The notes under the pieces are model-generated. The model saw only the letters and a program-made list of their open reading frames with translations. It did no database searches and was not told the DNA's origin. Of a DNA stretch of 64,000 nt, positions 28,503 through 56,178 are shown in pieces. The stretch spans positions 1 to 64,000 of the forward strand of contig JAYZEG010000010.1 in the NCBI GenBank assembly GCA_036337435.1, written 5' to 3'. The DNA is from Myxococcota bacterium. GTDB lineage: Bacteria; Myxococcota_A; Bradymonadia; UBA7976; UBA1532. Position numbers and translations under genes: made by a program. Positions within the stretch are counted from its first letter, which is position 1. Each line of letters begins with the position of its first letter.

Positions 28503-29810
28503 CTATTGGATTGCACCGGAACGGATCCCACTGATAATGTGTCGATAGGTCTCGGCAATGAGACGGTCTGTTTCGTGATATTTTCGGTGCGCCTGCAGCT
28601 GACTGACAATAAAAAACTCTCTCCCTAAATTCAACGTCGGCTGGCCCTGCTCATCTAGGACCGGGAGACATGCATACCCGGCGTTGACAAATTCGCCGCC
28701 CCTCGAATATCCAAAACCAAGTTTGCTAAAGATTCGCCATTGACCTTGAGCGGCTCTCTCAATCGCTGCCGTGTCGATGGCGTTTTGCAAATAGACAGTT
28801 GGATCTGATTCCATACCTTGTGGCTGCTCATCTTCAAATAAAACCGAATTAGCGGACCCATAAAGCAATGTTTGAACATCGGGCCATTGAAGATGGGGCA
28901 TCGCGTATCGCGGGTTTTCTCGGTGCATCACTAACCGTTTAAGGAATTCTGCTATCGTGTATGTGGACAGCTGATTCTCCGGCCCGTTTCCGTCATCACC
29001 AGGCATCTCAATACGCCCTGCCTCGCCAATAAAATAGGTGCCGACGGCGGCACTCGGATGACCATAGTTACCACCCAGTGTTTCGTCTTGCGATCTCTGC
29101 AACCAGCCTTCATGAATCAAATGATCGAGCTGGGTGCGTGTGCCGATATTGAGAAACCAGCGAGCAAGGCCATTAGACGTGAATCGCTGCTCATCGTAAT
29201 TGTGGACAATGGTCGATAAATCACCGATTGGAAGAGAGTCTACTGTGGCCGTGAGCCCAAGTGCGCCATCAGATGCCTTACGAAGTGCCGCACCCGCATT
29301 AGCGACAGCCATGAATTTAGTGGAACTCCAGGGCTGTATAATCACATCGTGAGTTCCATTGCTTAAGTACCGATAATGTGGCTCACCATTGACTCGCCTG
29401 ACCAAAATGACCGTGATATTCATGTCGTCAGGTACAAGGCCAACGAGGGCGTCGCTATCGACCTCCGGGGCATCGGCTGCGGGTCGATATGTATGAGATT
29501 GGTCAGTACTTGTCCCATGGACGTGCGGTGAGCTGTGTTCTGTGGGACATGTGAACTCCCGATCGCGCTGGGTTGGGATCACCTTGGTACATTTCGTATC
29601 GTCTAGATACTCGAAGTAATCGTTAGGAAAGGGGCCGCATTCGTCTCGATTTACTTGAGTCGAATCACCTTTACCTGGACGATAATCGGAGTCGGGCTGC
29701 ACAGAATCGGCGCGTGTGTCCATCACCTCCAACTCATCAGAACAACCGGTCACGATAAGACTCACTGCCACGAGCAGCTCAACCAATCTGTCGCAAATCC
29801 AACGACCCAT
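28503..29810 (-). CDS. Hypothetical lipoprotein with serine beta-lactamase/PBP-like motif spacing
   Basis: GGAG RBS; lipobox VTGC; WSSTK (SxxK), TSNG, SKLG. Confidence 0.65.
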   Translation of the reverse strand: MGRWICDRLVELLVAVSLIVTGCSDELEVMDTRADSVQPDSDYRPGKGDSTQVNRDECGPFPNDYFEYLDDTKCTKVIPTQRDREFTCPTEHSSPHVHGTSTDQSHTYRPAADAPEVDSDALVGLVPDDMNITVILVRRVNGEPHYRYLSNGTHDVIIQPWSSTKFMAVANAGAALRKASDGALGLTATVDSLPIGDLSTIVHNYDEQRFTSNGLARWFLNIGTRTQLDHLIHEGWLQRSQDETLGGNYGHPSAAVGTYFIGEAGRIEMPGDDGNGPENQLSTYTIAEFLKRLVMHRENPRYAMPHLQWPDVQTLLYGSANSVLFEDEQPQGMESDPTVYLQNAIDTAAIERAAQGQWRIFSKLGFGYSRGGEFVNAGYACLPVLDEQGQPTLNLGREFFIVSQLQAHRKYHETDRLIAETYRHIISGIRSGAIQ

Positions 29811-30125
29811 CTTTTGGACTCCAAAAAACATCCAGTCCGAATAGTCCAGCAAACATCATGCCAGAGCATGACACGAGCAAAAAATATTTTGTTCAATATT
29901 ATTAGAAAGTTAACTGAAATCAATCCGACCAAGCATCAGCTCACCAGAAGCCTGGGTACTCTTGGACACAGTCATCCAGCCTGACTGGGGACAAAATAGC
30001 CCAATGGGGGTTTTTATTTTATTACGAGATCTACTTGGCTATGAAATCATTTGCGGTATACACAGTAGACACATTTGTTTGCCTTTTGTGGTCGACGCTC
30101 AACAACACAGTAAACGGATTGCAAG

Positions 30126-52493: not shown

Positions 52494-54236
52494 TCAATTA
52501 TCAGCCCATTCAATACGGCGGGCGGCTGATACAATATCTGAAGGCAAAGCCGACCGATAGGCCTGGTCGAAGGCATCGGCCAATTGACCGGCAGTCGAAA
52601 ACCGGTCTACGGGATCGGGTGCCATGGCGATGCTCAGAAAATCGCTGATCTGCCCATCTAAATCCGGGGCTACGACCTGAGGGCGAGTTGGCCTTTGATA
52701 CGCTGCTGCCGCAACGGCATTAAAGCCAGACCCCTGGAAGGGCGGTGCGCCAGTCAAGCAGCGGTAGAGAACCGCACCCAGTGCATACAAATCTGTACGG
52801 TGATCTAGCTCGTGTCCTCGAGCCTGCTCAGGTGCCATATATCGGGGCGTTCCAACCACACAGCCGGCATGTGTCAATGTCTCGGCACCGGTCGTCCACT
52901 TTGAAACACCAAAATCGAGTACCTTCCAAACATTTCGAGTACTGCTTTCTCGGTGCGCGAAAAGATTATGGGGTTTAATGTCCCGGTGGATAACGCCTTG
53001 TTCGTGTGCGGCCGTGAGCCCGCGGCAGATGTGATGTACGAGACGGTGACATGCCCGAACGGATAAGCGTCCGCGGCGCCTCAGAATCGCGGCCAAGTCA
53101 TGTCCGTCGAGACGCTCCATTGCGATATATAACGTTCCATCAGTGTCTTGACCAAATTCATACACTTGCGTCACATGTGGCGACCGGATCTGGCGGGCAA
53201 TTTGTGCCTCGCGCTTGAATCGAGACACGATGGCTTCATTCTGAGTGTCTGACGTGTTCAGAATTTTAAGTGCTGACCGTTTTCCGCTCTTTTGCTCAAC
53301 CGCGTCGTACACTTCACCAGATGCACCCCGCCCGAGTAAGGGACCTAGGCGGTAATCTGAAATTGACTGGCCTGTCAGGCGACCAGACAAGCCCTCATCC
53401 CCGAAAATTCTTTCCAACTCAGCTTGGGCTTCTTCGAGCTGAACTTTTTTTAAATTGATGTCCATAACGGCACTTGCAACCGAGCCCATAGCATTTTCAA
53501 CCGCGTCCCGTGACCAAGTGGCCTGGGCAAAAGTGACGAGCAGAACCATGGGAACCATCAGGGTCATAAAGAGCATAGCCGATGCCCCCGCGTTGTTCCC
53601 GGTGAAAACGCCGATATCCTGGATTCGCCCTGTCAAGACACCAAGGAACAAAGCGAGGGTTAAAATAATGGCTGCAGAGCAAATGAGTACGGCGCCTCTT
53701 CGGTCAGCACCTTGCCCAAAAAAGCTGATACCGAGAGTGATGGCGAGCGCAGTTGGCGAATATGGCCCCAAATAAATAAGCGCGTTTACACAAGCAACGA
53801 CACCCACGATTCCGAAAATCCGAAACACGTTGCGATCGTATTTTTTGGGATTCTTGGCAACCCTCCAAACACCCAGACCTGTCAGTGCGAAAACGAAGAG
53901 GGTCGACGCAAAAATCAAGCTGTGTCCGCTGTGACCGGAATCTAAAAACGGCAGCCAAGCGAGTGTAACCAGACAAATCACACTGAATATGAGTCCGATA
54001 TTGCTTGCACGGATCGCTTCAGCTTCATGCAAACTGAGCTGTATATGTGAAACGGTCACCGCTGATTCAGGGCGTCGATCAAGATTTGAATGATCAACAG
54101 AAATTGGATTGGAGGGTGCGCGCTGGCCTGTTTGTATGGTGACGTCTTGTTCAATATGCCGAACCGCCCGGTCGGTCAGATTCTGAATTGACTCGATTGG
54201 AAAACGAGCGTCGGGTTTTCTGGGCTCAGACATCAA
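52494..54236 (-). CDS. Membrane-anchored Hanks-type Ser/Thr protein kinase
   Basis: N-terminal multi-TM region; LGRGASGEVY, ALKIL, HRDIKPHN, DFG, GTPRYMAPEQ. Confidence 0.93.
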   Translation of the reverse strand: MMSEPRKPDARFPIESIQNLTDRAVRHIEQDVTIQTGQRAPSNPISVDHSNLDRRPESAVTVSHIQLSLHEAEAIRASNIGLIFSVICLVTLAWLPFLDSGHSGHSLIFASTLFVFALTGLGVWRVAKNPKKYDRNVFRIFGIVGVVACVNALIYLGPYSPTALAITLGISFFGQGADRRGAVLICSAAIILTLALFLGVLTGRIQDIGVFTGNNAGASAMLFMTLMVPMVLLVTFAQATWSRDAVENAMGSVASAVMDINLKKVQLEEAQAELERIFGDEGLSGRLTGQSISDYRLGPLLGRGASGEVYDAVEQKSGKRSALKILNTSDTQNEAIVSRFKREAQIARQIRSPHVTQVYEFGQDTDGTLYIAMERLDGHDLAAILRRRGRLSVRACHRLVHHICRGLTAAHEQGVIHRDIKPHNLFAHRESSTRNVWKVLDFGVSKWTTGAETLTHAGCVVGTPRYMAPEQARGHELDHRTDLYALGAVLYRCLTGAPPFQGSGFNAVAAAAYQRPTRPQVVAPDLDGQISDFLSIAMAPDPVDRFSTAGQLADAFDQAYRSALPSDIVSAARRIEWADN

Positions 54237-54510
54237 CTGCGTCCAACATGGCTAGGTCTCGATTAGTCTAGCATGATCTTATCGTCTGCACCCATGTTCA
54301 TTGGACATCCGACTCTATTCTAAACGGATAGCATCATCGGAATGTCACAGGTCAAACGTAGATGACTGACCGACGGGCTGACGCCTCAATTATAACGCCC
54401 GATGAGGGCAATTAATGACTCGGTCTTTTGACCCCACTTGTGTGACCTACTGTCCACATTTATCGGTTCATGACGGCAAGGTTCACCTGAGCTTGGCCTC
54501 CCCGTAAACT

Positions 54511-54526
54511 TGGCATGCGGCTTGCT
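54511..54526 (+). promoter_or_regulatory. Sigma54 (-24/-12) promoter
   Basis: TGGCATGCGGCTTGCT: GG-N10-GC, one mismatch to TGGCAC-N5-TTGCW; predicted TSS near 54537. Confidence 0.8.
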
Positions 54527-54536
54527 ATCTCATGGA

Positions 54537-54946
54537 CGCAGGAAAGCAACTTGGGTCCAGAAGGAGGACCACCACGAGGGTCGATGCCGTGACACGTACG
54601 TCAACGCATCGGACAAGAAATTCAGTCTCGGCCTACAAGCTATAGAGGTAGCGGGCATCACGTCCCCCATCCCCCCCAGTGGATGCTCGCTACCCTCATT
54701 TTTACCAGGGTGCGTGACAGTCTGGTTGCTAAATGAGGGTGCTCAATAAGCGAGTCAGACAGGCTAAAGGTAGCGGGCATCACGCCCCCGTCCCCCCAAC
54801 AGGATGCTCGCTACCTCTCATTTTTTTCGGTAGGCAAGCCGTAAACCCATACGCGTTGCGGTTCTTGACATGACCTAAACTCTAGGCAGCGGGTATCCGT
54901 CTCCCCTCCGTCCCCCAAACAGGATACTCGCTGCCTCGCCTCACTT
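54537..54946 (+). ncRNA. Candidate sigma54-driven multi-module structured RNA (Pxr-like sRNA array)
   Basis: Three conserved C-loop hairpins with compensatory changes, separated by unrelated long hairpins; no credible CDS on the + strand. Confidence 0.65.
54647..54936 (+). repeat. Three imperfect ~50-nt hairpin repeats at ~120-nt period
   Basis: 54647-54694, 54768-54816, 54884-54936; consensus GGYAGCGGGYATC-[C-rich loop]-GATRCTCGCTRCC followed by CTCAYTT. Confidence 0.9.
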
Positions 54947-54996
54947 AAAACAAAGCAGCTACCAGGGACCAGACGGGTTGGTCAATACCCCCGAAA

Positions 54997-56178
54997 TTAA
55001 GAGAATAGCGACGACGAAAATGGGGGGATCAGCTTCATGGCAGTTGCCACAATGTACGCAGTCCAGAAAATGTACAAACTGCCGAGGAACCAGCCTCTTC
55101 CCTTACCAACGCTGACAGTTCGAGTCCCATCATCGGCGGTGCCTCGAGGCCCAGTCAGAAAGGTCAACAAGATAATGACGGTTGCGCCAACCAAGATAAT
55201 TCGAAGGTCTTGAACTGCCGCCCCGCTTCCAGCTGTACCGCCCGTCAATGCGATCTCACTGCCGTTGTAGAGGCAGTAGGCCAGCAGGGGTAATCCCAAG
55301 GCAACACAGATGTCGAAAATATTACTCCCAACAGCATTAGACACCGCATCGTCGTAATCTCCCTTCATCGCGTCTTTGTAGGAGATGACGGTATCTGGAA
55401 CGCTGGTTGCCGCAGCCCCCAGGATGACAGCAGTGAAGTATGCTGGTACACCGAGTGCGTCAGCGGAATGGATTACGGCCTCGGCTAAGAAATAGCATGC
55501 ACCGCCGATGGTTGCCGTGGCGCAAATCAGAACGACCCATGCGGAGCCTTTGGTAAACTCGTTGCCGCCATAAATCAGATTATTGTAATCGAAGGTAAGC
55601 AGATTGGCGACAAAGCCCTTATGCTCGTCCTCCTCATCATCATCATCATCGTCGTCGTCATCATCTCCCCCGCCCATGCCACGAAGGAGAACGCCAAAGT
55701 AGACGACATAAATACCGATCAAAGCTGCACCCATCCACCAAGCCAATGCGGTGTTGCCGAGAAATACGATGAGTGCGACCTCAGCTAGGATGAAGAAGAA
55801 TCCGTCTCGCAGAAGCGTACTCTGCCCCAAACTAACGCTGTTAATTACCTCGCCATTTACGCCTTTCGTGGTCACGGCAATAATGCAGACGGCTGGTATG
55901 ACAGCTGCATTGAACACGGCACTGCCCGCGCATGTTGCGATACCAGCGGAGAAGCCATCGGTGTCGTGATAGAGAAAGAGCAGAAATAAGGTGGTGAACA
56001 ATTCCGGTAGAGAACTTGCGATCGCTTCGATGGTCGCGCCTCGAATACCGGGCTTCATCTTATAGACTTTCTTCCCCAAATGGTCTGAAGCCCCCTCAAA
56101 CGAATCGCAGGCGAACTTAATGACATACATCGCGGCACAAACCAGCCCTAAAGACTGCATGAGTTTCGTTACGTCCAA
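54997..56178 (-). CDS. Na+/Ca2+ antiporter (CaCA, Na_Ca_ex) with a poly-Asp loop
   Basis: Alpha-1 GATIEAIASSLPE..GSAVFN; alpha-2 AAATSVPD..GSNIFD; D10-EEDE central loop. Confidence 0.92.
   Translation of the reverse strand: MDVTKLMQSLGLVCAAMYVIKFACDSFEGASDHLGKKVYKMKPGIRGATIEAIASSLPELFTTLFLLFLYHDTDGFSAGIATCAGSAVFNAAVIPAVCIIAVTTKGVNGEVINSVSLGQSTLLRDGFFFILAEVALIVFLGNTALAWWMGAALIGIYVVYFGVLLRGMGGGDDDDDDDDDDEEDEHKGFVANLLTFDYNNLIYGGNEFTKGSAWVVLICATATIGGACYFLAEAVIHSADALGVPAYFTAVILGAAATSVPDTVISYKDAMKGDYDDAVSNAVGSNIFDICVALGLPLLAYCLYNGSEIALTGGTAGSGAAVQDLRIILVGATVIILLTFLTGPRGTADDGTRTVSVGKGRGWFLGSLYIFWTAYIVATAMKLIPPFSSSLFS

Follow-up and report, generated by a model that had tools for sequence, protein, structure and literature searches.

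What is encoded in a 760-nucleotide (nt) gap that lacks a credible protein gene but holds three similar hairpins behind a single promoter motif? The question is raised by positions 54237-54996 of the window analyzed here, that is, the whole 64,000-nt stretch at the start of contig JAYZEG010000010.1 from a Myxococcota bacterium (genome of 4.38 Mb in 95 contigs, 87% complete), where the gap lies between a divergent kinase gene and a convergent exchanger gene. A preliminary description had taken the hairpins for a sigma-54-driven array of C-rich-loop RNAs resembling Pxr, to our knowledge the one well-studied small RNA (sRNA) in Myxococcota. We find that the array is very probably a real noncoding RNA gene and that, judging by its promoter motif, it probably depends on sigma-54; the reading that fits best, and that we hold with moderate confidence, is that of a genus-restricted, sigma-54-dependent modular sRNA gene.

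Hairpin units, promoter, and upstream block

The same locus occurs in the sister species G002 and in a third species of the genus, G001, which serve as comparisons for the elements listed here in the order in which they lie along the window.

54418-54449, + strand: conserved upstream block with the core TGACCCCAC-N3-TGTGAC at 54429-54446 (18 nt), from the alignment with G002 and the presence of the core in G001
54511-54526, + strand: sigma-54-type -24/-12 promoter, TGGCAT-GCGGC-TTGCT, read directly and conserved in G002 and G001
54537-54646, + strand: leader of ~110 nt, poorly conserved (35-55% identity to G002; fold z score of -0.7 against shuffles)
54647-54694, + strand: unit 1, a 13-bp hairpin whose 22-nt loop contains C5-AU-C7, with the tail CUCAUUUUU (-24.2 kcal/mol and z -3.8; 74.9 bits under the covariance model)
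54691-54741, + strand: spacer hairpin between units 1 and 2, arms 54692-54701/54731-54740, an inverted repeat complementary at 10 of 10 positions (-25.5 kcal/mol, z -4.7)
54769-54815, + strand: unit 2, a 13- to 14-bp hairpin whose loop contains C5-GU-C6, with the tail CUCAUUUUUUU (z -4.7; 79.7 bits under the covariance model)
54885-54935, + strand: unit 3, a hairpin of 15 bp around the loop CCCCUCCGUCCCCC, with a tail ending in CUCACUU (-27.6 kcal/mol and z -7.2; 76.0 bits under the covariance model)

At the level of sequence, the hairpins, the strand to which they belong, their covariation, and the conservation of the promoter and the upstream block are established. The units pair through arms at 54647-54659/54682-54694, 54768-54781/54803-54816, and 54884-54898/54922-54936, follow each other at 121 and 120 nt when measured in loop register (122 and 116 nt between successive stem starts), and hold loops of 17 to 23 nt that stay open in the predicted folds. 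The preliminary description had read the units in the same way: hairpins of 13 to 15 bp about every 120 nt, the three C-rich loops, and a CTCAYTT motif after each unit with T5 and T7 on the first two are all present, the tails reading CTCATTTTT, CTCATTTTTTT, and CTCACTT in DNA letters. On the RNA, the U5 and U7 runs lie 5 to 6 nt after units 1 and 2, and none follows unit 3 or any unit of G001. The spacer hairpin overlaps the foot of unit 1, and its equivalent in G002 also folds (z -2.6).

Two features of the stems that had been claimed at the outset are both present. Relative to units 1 and 2, unit 3 carries two compensatory swaps, U-A to C-G and C-G to U-A (pairs 12/58 and 19/51), and all three units share a G-U pair (17/53) that is an A-C mismatch on the opposite strand. 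None of 200 shuffles per unit folded as well as the + strand of that unit, whereas the - strand gave z scores of -0.9, -2.7, and -3.75 for units 1 to 3, the folds being worse because the A-C mismatch replaces the G-U pair. The whole 424-nt stretch behaves likewise (z -4.0 on the + strand versus -2.0 on the - strand).

The array is confined to a single place in its genome. Across the 4.38 Mb, the stem-loop-stem pattern occurs three times in forward orientation, all within the array, and not at all in reverse (0 matches also in a reversed control). With three copies, all on the + strand and all at this locus, a dispersed repeat of the repetitive extragenic palindrome (REP) or miniature inverted-repeat transposable element (MITE) type is excluded, and with it the REP-like alternative that the preliminary description had itself named. 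Judged by its repeats, no search aimed at cas genes having been made, the array is not of the CRISPR type either: the repeats differ and covary, and in G001 the whole 105- to 106-nt unit is repeated, spacer included.

Nor does the gap appear to encode protein. Its small + strand open reading frames (ORFs) translate to 79, 46, 37, and 25 amino acids (aa); the 79-aa ORF, the one small ORF run against Pfam, has no match, and at the sister locus no small + strand ORF recurs with matching extent or frame. We reject a coding reading on these two grounds, in agreement with the earlier view that the stretch holds no credible coding sequence.

The near-consensus -24/-12 promoter that had been reported ahead of the array is indeed there, at 54511-54526, and departs in a single position from TGGCAC-N5-TTGCW, the consensus given in the paper on the Pseudomonas sRNA NrsZ. 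Counterparts with variable spacers stand at the same place in G002 (TGGCAT-ACAGC-TTGCT) and G001 (TGGCAC-AGAGA-TTGCT); each of the three loci has one promoter motif, ahead of the whole array. Transcription by sigma-54 RNA polymerase usually starts 12 nt from the promoter, which places the predicted start near 54537. The 64-kb window contains two matches to TGGCAYN5TTGCW, versus 0.13 expected from shuffles; the second, at 29848-29863 on the - strand, lies ~38 nt upstream of an ATG at 29810 in front of a gene of ~435 aa (ORF 28503-29852, - strand) and is probably the ordinary sigma-54 promoter of that protein gene.

Upstream of the promoter, the intergenic alignment with G002, identical in 393 of 890 columns (44%) overall, rises to 85-95% over 54413-54452 (best 20-nt stretches) and stands at 80% over the promoter itself. 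The core of this upstream block is present in all three genomes and occurs in full once in the 4.38-Mb genome; the block is a candidate upstream activating sequence at which a sigma-54 activator may bind. From the end of the core to the promoter there are 64 nt in both the window and G002, compared with 85 nt in G001; the offset of 21 nt, close to two turns of the helix, is what one would expect of an activator that needs to face the promoter. The genome encodes sigma-54 (rpoN) and yields 16 matches to activator-type proteins. An abundance of activator-type genes, like a Ser/Thr kinase gene next to the array, is in keeping with myxobacteria and points indirectly to Myxococcota as the phylum.

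Between promoter and units, the leader measures 110, 108, and 95 nt in the window, G002, and G001. A leader hairpin with AAGGA in its loop occurs in the window (54553-54571) and in G002 (L005, ~1422-1447), and not in G001. AAGGA-type loops are the kind of motif that CsrA binds, and a csrA gene is present in the genome; the hairpin may be a coincidence. A second conserved island, at 54243-54302 (60-80% identity to G002), adjoins the start of the kinase gene, to which it presumably belongs as promoter or 5′ untranslated region (UTR).

Sister loci, covariation, and neighboring genes

In a DNA search of 61 genomes (the window's own and 60 relatives), the locus was recovered from the window's genome and from G002. 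A covariance model built from five units, the kind of check that had been proposed for the array, adds G001, so that 3 of the 28 genomes in the family carry the locus, each of them from the same genus; its matches comprise the array loci and weak reverse-strand echoes of two of them. The structure is thus kept in both relatives, and the number of units varies: three in the window, two in G002, and at least five in G001, where they are nearly identical and the assembly breaks inside the array. The period is constant within each species and differs among them (122/116, 124, and 105-106 nt, respectively). A fourth species of the genus, G003, shows neither the array nor the exchanger gene beside which it would be expected; as the exchanger gene is missing from its 840-contig assembly, the absence of the array there is uninformative.

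Window and G002 are 70-85% identical over units 1 and 2, and unit 3 is without a counterpart in this alignment. Among the ten units of the three genomes, the core (G/A)UCCCCC appears in 10 of 10 loops, and standard pairing holds in 94% of the 150 stem cells. Both sides have changed in 5 of 15 pairs (11 cells), a cell count reached by none of 500 shuffles; sliding the partners by 1 to 3 columns leaves 0 to 1 such pairs. G-U or U-G pairs fill 12 of the 150 stem cells, each an A-C mismatch on the opposite strand.

The genes next to the array in the window and in G001 are the following:

52494-54236, - strand: divergent upstream neighbor, coding for 580 aa that include a Ser/Thr kinase domain (Pfam Pkinase, 6.9e-48, residues 296-549)
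54997-56178, - strand: convergent downstream neighbor, a membrane protein of the Na/Ca exchanger family (Pfam Na_Ca_ex, 8.3e-30)
L018 688-1992 (G001:C110), - strand: sigma-54 activator gene of G001, assigned by Pfam

The exchanger gene, which confirms the convergent downstream gene noted earlier, is the sole neighbor kept beside the array in all three genomes (proteins 87-94% identical). In the central loop of the exchanger protein, an acidic run of ~13 Asp/Glu residues is kept in all three, as read from the alignment consensus. Between the last unit and the stop of the exchanger gene lie 61 nt in the window versus ~310 nt in G001, where our own reading of the gap finds a hairpin and a T7 run. 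On the - strand of the window, 3′ of the exchanger gene, a 13-bp hairpin with G-U pairs at 54930-54960 may be the 3′ end structure of the exchanger mRNA; it overlaps the foot of unit 3, and convergent transcripts may therefore overlap.

On the other side, G002 has the same kinase gene as the window, and G001 does not. The N-terminal 295 aa of the kinase protein match no Pfam family. In place of the kinase gene, G001 has a gene for a 434-aa protein with Sigma54_activat and HTH_8 (Fis-type) domains, on the same strand as the array and ending just before the upstream block. The N-terminal 144 aa of this activator match no Pfam family and contain no recognizable receiver domain; homologues of this part occur in 5 of 113 genomes including G001 itself, the other four (G011, G021, G027, and G033; 37-42% identity) lying outside the genus, and it may represent an undescribed sensory domain. 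The DNA 3′ of the homologues in G021, G033, and G011 contains no array.

Searches beyond the genus and comparison with NrsZ and CcsR

Outside the genus, no further copy of the array came to light. A degenerate stem-loop-stem pattern run on 401 genomes of the phylum matched three, namely, the window's genome, G001, and G002. The covariance model gave four matches in 113 genomes of the class, of which three are genuine; we reject the fourth, a 30-bit match in G041, because it is part of a different repeat, the GCTCGCGAGC palindrome, with a 42-nt period. Six exchanger homologues from other genera of the family (53-57% identity) have no adjoining unit (best score, 9.7 bits with filters off), and a scan of contigs with the exchanger protein returned a 55% relative, from a Myxococcota bacterium metagenome-assembled genome (MAG), and an unrelated 40% fragment, neither with an array. 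The metagenome pattern GCGGG-gap-CCGTCCCCC-gap-CGCTRCCYC gave at least 118 stretches, of which 80 were scored, all at ≤18.4 bits and therefore chance matches. Nowhere in the window is the gathering score of an Rfam 15 family attained, and no family matches the units at E values of up to 10, which fits the earlier claim that the array is undescribed; a literature search on sRNAs in this lineage likewise returned no relevant paper.

The GCTCGCGAGC arrays form a class of their own, with an exact 42-nt period and with spacers that differ between loci and are mostly not C-rich. They occur in 8 of 113 class genomes at several loci each, and a single array with C/U-rich spacers accounts for the 30-bit match; examples are G041:C24:375617-375848 (L185 1376-1607), G041:C24:47569-47704, and G041:C34:88673-88932, with further loci in G047, G056, G403, G383, G018, G039, and G672.

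Two described systems come close to the array in design. NrsZ of Pseudomonas (Wenner et al., 2013) depends on RpoN and NtrC, is encoded between ntrC and the next gene, which are arranged tail to tail, and consists of three repeated stem-loops with one loop motif and with stem-loop spacers, processed to units of ~44 nt (PMC4253122). Its modules number 6, 3, 2, and 1 in four Pseudomonas species, with a spacer length that is fixed within each, and its authors, having found no protein partner, favor base pairing (PMC4253122). The array shares with NrsZ, so described, one RpoN-type promoter ahead of repeated stem-loops with a single loop motif, a module number that varies among species, spacers that can themselves be stem-loops, and a spacer length that is constant within species and different between them; the G001 locus adds a gap behind an activator gene and facing a convergent gene. 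The two differ in loop motif (ACAGGCAG in NrsZ versus C5-GU-C5 here), and the array has longer stems and larger loops, belongs to another phylum, and in the window's genome is without an adjoining activator gene. Processing and targets, moreover, have been demonstrated for NrsZ, whereas here they are conjectural. With C-rich loops around a central GU or AU and no match to any Rfam family (to NrsZ, too, if Rfam includes it), the array does not belong to the Pseudomonas NrsZ family, and NrsZ is best taken as an analogue, a closer precedent than Pxr in architecture and not in homology.

CcsR1-4 are four homologous sRNAs with C-rich anti-Shine-Dalgarno loops (CCUCCUCCC), which RNase E releases from a precursor of ~400 nt that is transcribed from an alternative-sigma promoter (PMC8034643). 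Together with the related “cuckoo” RNAs (Rhodobacter, rhizobia), they resemble the array in their tandem homologous RNAs, C-rich loops, alternative-sigma promoter, and ~400-nt precursor (the precursor of the array being a proposed one). RNase E is described as cutting at U-rich flanks, and an RNase E gene is present in the window's genome. In the same account, however, CcsR has two hairpins per unit, forms part of a DUF1127 gene's UTR, and is under RpoHI/HII control, as opposed to the one hairpin per unit, the sigma-54-type promoter, and the lack of a DUF1127 gene here. The Rfam model of CcsR1 (RF02791) does not match the units, and we do not assign the array to CcsR; its sole match, at 13.7 bits (gathering score, 65.3), is on the - strand inside the exchanger gene. 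As such, the array is NrsZ-like in architecture and control logic, CcsR-like in loop chemistry, and a member of neither, and is most likely a new modular regulatory sRNA of the kind known from Pseudomonas and Rhodobacter.

Expression, proposed mode of action, and alternatives

We envisage the following mode of action. Sigma-54 RNA polymerase would start near 54537, aided by an enhancer-binding protein on the 54429-54446 block, and produce a primary transcript of ~400 nt. After the 110-nt leader, this transcript would present three copies of a module composed of a 13- to 15-bp hairpin and a single-stranded loop of 17 to 23 nt with the core C5-(G/A)U-C5-7, separated by spacers of ~70 nt, the first of which would itself be a hairpin; copy number, which stands at 2, 3, and at least 5 across the sister species, is the variable that evolves. 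The precursor may be cut in the A/U-rich single-stranded flanks, or may partly terminate at the U-runs of units 1 and 2, either of which would release one-hairpin RNAs. Their C-rich loops would then pair with G-runs in mRNAs, above all with ribosome-binding sites of the GGGGG type, and the paired targets would be silenced whenever the activator is switched on.

Some of what this mode of action calls for is found in the genome. RNase E and RNase G genes are both present, and GGGGG is 4- to 5-fold enriched between positions -20 and -1 relative to crudely called starts of genes (147 occurrences versus ~15-20 per 10-nt bin elsewhere); there is, therefore, a class of G-run ribosome-binding sites with which all-C loops could pair. 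GGAGG and AGGAG are also enriched before gene starts. The 3′ end of the 16S rRNA is not in the assembly. A perfect complement of the loop core exists at G000:C58:310930-311024 in the window's own genome, at a contig end with long runs of C and of G, and is most likely an assembly artifact. That the array acts by pairing of its loops with G-rich mRNA sites we regard as a tentative proposal, possible but short of probable.

Expression is hinted at weakly. The sequencing runs that contain the surrounding 5.7 kb are labeled marine or seawater metagenomes. In the metatranscriptome library X19, a 163-nt contig of depth 9 covers 54635-54797 (from unit 1 to the loop of unit 2), and contigs on the neighboring genes have depths of 2 to 7.5. 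The intergenic region is without a contig in two other RNA libraries, X18 and X20, and in a DNA run 29 of 30 bins of the stretch were covered. We take this as a weak hint that the array is transcribed.

Several observations weigh against the picture of a processed, sigma-54-controlled, mRNA-pairing RNA and are given here together. The Logan contigs behind the expression data carry neither strand nor ends, and DNA may contaminate RNA libraries. The covariation counts come from an alignment that was fitted to the model and from three related genomes only. A terminator scan over 54000-55300, limited to loops of 3 to 8 nt, found none on the + strand, which follows from unit loops that exceed this limit, and the U-runs at which termination might occur are kept neither in G001 nor in the last units. 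No orthologue of the G001 activator was found in the window's genome (87% complete), G002, or G003; in the first of these, its N- and C-terminal parts give a best tblastn E value of 0.002 over 31 aa, and matches to the whole protein are confined to its ATPase core (38-46% identity). Predicted duplexes between loops and mRNAs are no stronger in 5′ regions than in mid-gene controls (mean of -16.0 versus -16.6 kcal/mol), and those at or below -22 kcal/mol number 302 in 5′ regions versus 346 in the controls. Of two top target candidates followed across the genus, one has no orthologue there, and for the other the site in G001 is an ordinary GGAGGAG, its G-run being unconserved.

The last of these results bear also on the alternative that survives best, in which the array would be a sponge that titrates a protein binding C-rich loops, as CsrB and RsmZ do for CsrA and CrcZ does for Hfq/Crc, with copy number setting its capacity. 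CsrA, whose gene is present, binds GGA motifs, and the loops of the array are without GGA. A conserved mRNA target emerged neither from the duplex energies nor from the two candidates, and a single loop core that stays constant while its copies vary from two to at least five per array is what titration would favor. CrcZ is itself reported to be sigma-54 dependent and to titrate Hfq/Crc (PMC5113210). Hfq, however, was not found in the window's genome, such that a sponge may need another partner, and we have no candidate protein; for NrsZ, which has the same repeat design, its authors report having found none (PMC4253122). We consider a sponge unlikely.

The conserved exchanger gene invites a different explanation, namely, that the promoter fires mainly against this gene and the hairpins act in cis as roadblocks or stabilizers of convergent transcription. 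The exchanger gene is indeed the one neighbor retained while the upstream side has been rearranged, no clear + strand terminator follows unit 3, and the - strand hairpin near 54930-54960 overlaps the foot of that unit; but the distance from array to gene is not maintained (61 versus ~310 nt), the longer gap in G001 contains its own hairpin and T7 run, and selection is visible on loops and stems and not on the overlap with the gene. This device is very doubtful.

Pxr controls entry into fruiting-body development, and the preliminary description had placed the array beside it, conceding that sequence homology could not be demonstrated; we could demonstrate none either. [quoted passage not shown] The tandem pxr paralogues of Cystobacter each have a sigma-54 promoter of their own (PMC5568312). 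The likeness lies in the sigma-54 logic, the hairpin loop, and the tandem copies in some species; the host of Pxr is described as lacking hfq, and none was found in the window's genome either. G001 has an activator gene directly upstream, as Pxr does, whereas the window and G002 have the divergent Ser/Thr kinase gene instead.

Whether the units descend from the first stem-loop of Pxr is a narrower matter. In G001 the order of activator gene, sigma-54 promoter in the gap, and loop RNA is the same as at pxr; a printed primer for pxr positions 13-33 reads as the start of a stem followed by a C-run, with 11 of its first 13 letters, by our own count, matching the 5′ side of unit 2; and the nearest outside relative of the exchanger is from a Myxococcota bacterium MAG. 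Yet the 11-of-13 match holds for one unit only, and the 21-nt pxr segment as a whole finds no match at ≤2 mismatches in the window's genome or G001, one match with 2 mismatches (in a coding region) in 196 phylum genomes that are ≥98% complete, and none in 121 genomes of the Myxococcota MAG's phylum, where Myxococcus itself, for unexplained reasons, did not appear. A three-stem-loop RNA whose copies have their own promoters also stands against single-hairpin modules, of which the first alone is followed by a spacer hairpin, under one promoter for all; the G001 activator is without a recognizable receiver domain, in contrast to the NtrC-like PxrR; and Rfam gave no match at E values of up to 10 (the presence of a Pxr model in Rfam 15 being unconfirmed). 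True homology to Pxr is, on balance, most improbable. What stands of the earlier interpretation is a promoter-led, noncoding, covarying C-loop array, now seen in three genomes; what finds no support, on grounds of architecture, promoters, and the missing Rfam match, is membership in the Pxr family. That interpretation was right in substance and too specific in naming Pxr, and the parallel is real as an analogy.

A further alternative, that a DNA palindrome duplicated in place (e.g., an array bound by protein or the remnant of a bidirectional terminator) sits by a chance promoter-like motif and has no RNA function, could appeal to the - strand folds of units 2 and 3 (z -2.7 and -3.75), to the periodic palindrome arrays of another kind in the class, and to expression being unproven, but is hardly credible given the better + strand folds with G-U pairs in 12 of 150 cells, loops conserved as strongly as stems, a promoter and block whose distances across the three genomes are fixed or in helical phase, and the RNA-library contig over units 1 and 2.

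A speculative extension of the Pxr parallel, to which we assign little probability, is that the array is a deep relative of Pxr, or an independent reinvention within the same phylum, multiplied into a dosage array in a marine and probably nonfruiting lineage. On this view, both would combine an activator gene and a sigma-54 promoter with a hairpin RNA that works through its C-rich loop. If it were homologous, Pxr-type riboregulation would be older than fruiting-body development, and its original job would have been another, e.g., the selective silencing of around a hundred genes with GGGGG-type ribosome-binding sites.

For the modular sRNA gene that we favor, selectivity is open to test: all-C loops should pair better with GGGGG- than with GGAGG-type sites, and the window's genome uses both. 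All three hosts are MAGs, and the array, if real, would be a new RNA family without an Rfam match from an uncultured marine lineage, probably of the Myxococcota. It would also be the third independent case, after NrsZ and CcsR, of an array of one-hairpin modules whose copy number varies among species, and such arrays would suggest a general bacterial way to tune the dosage of a regulator.

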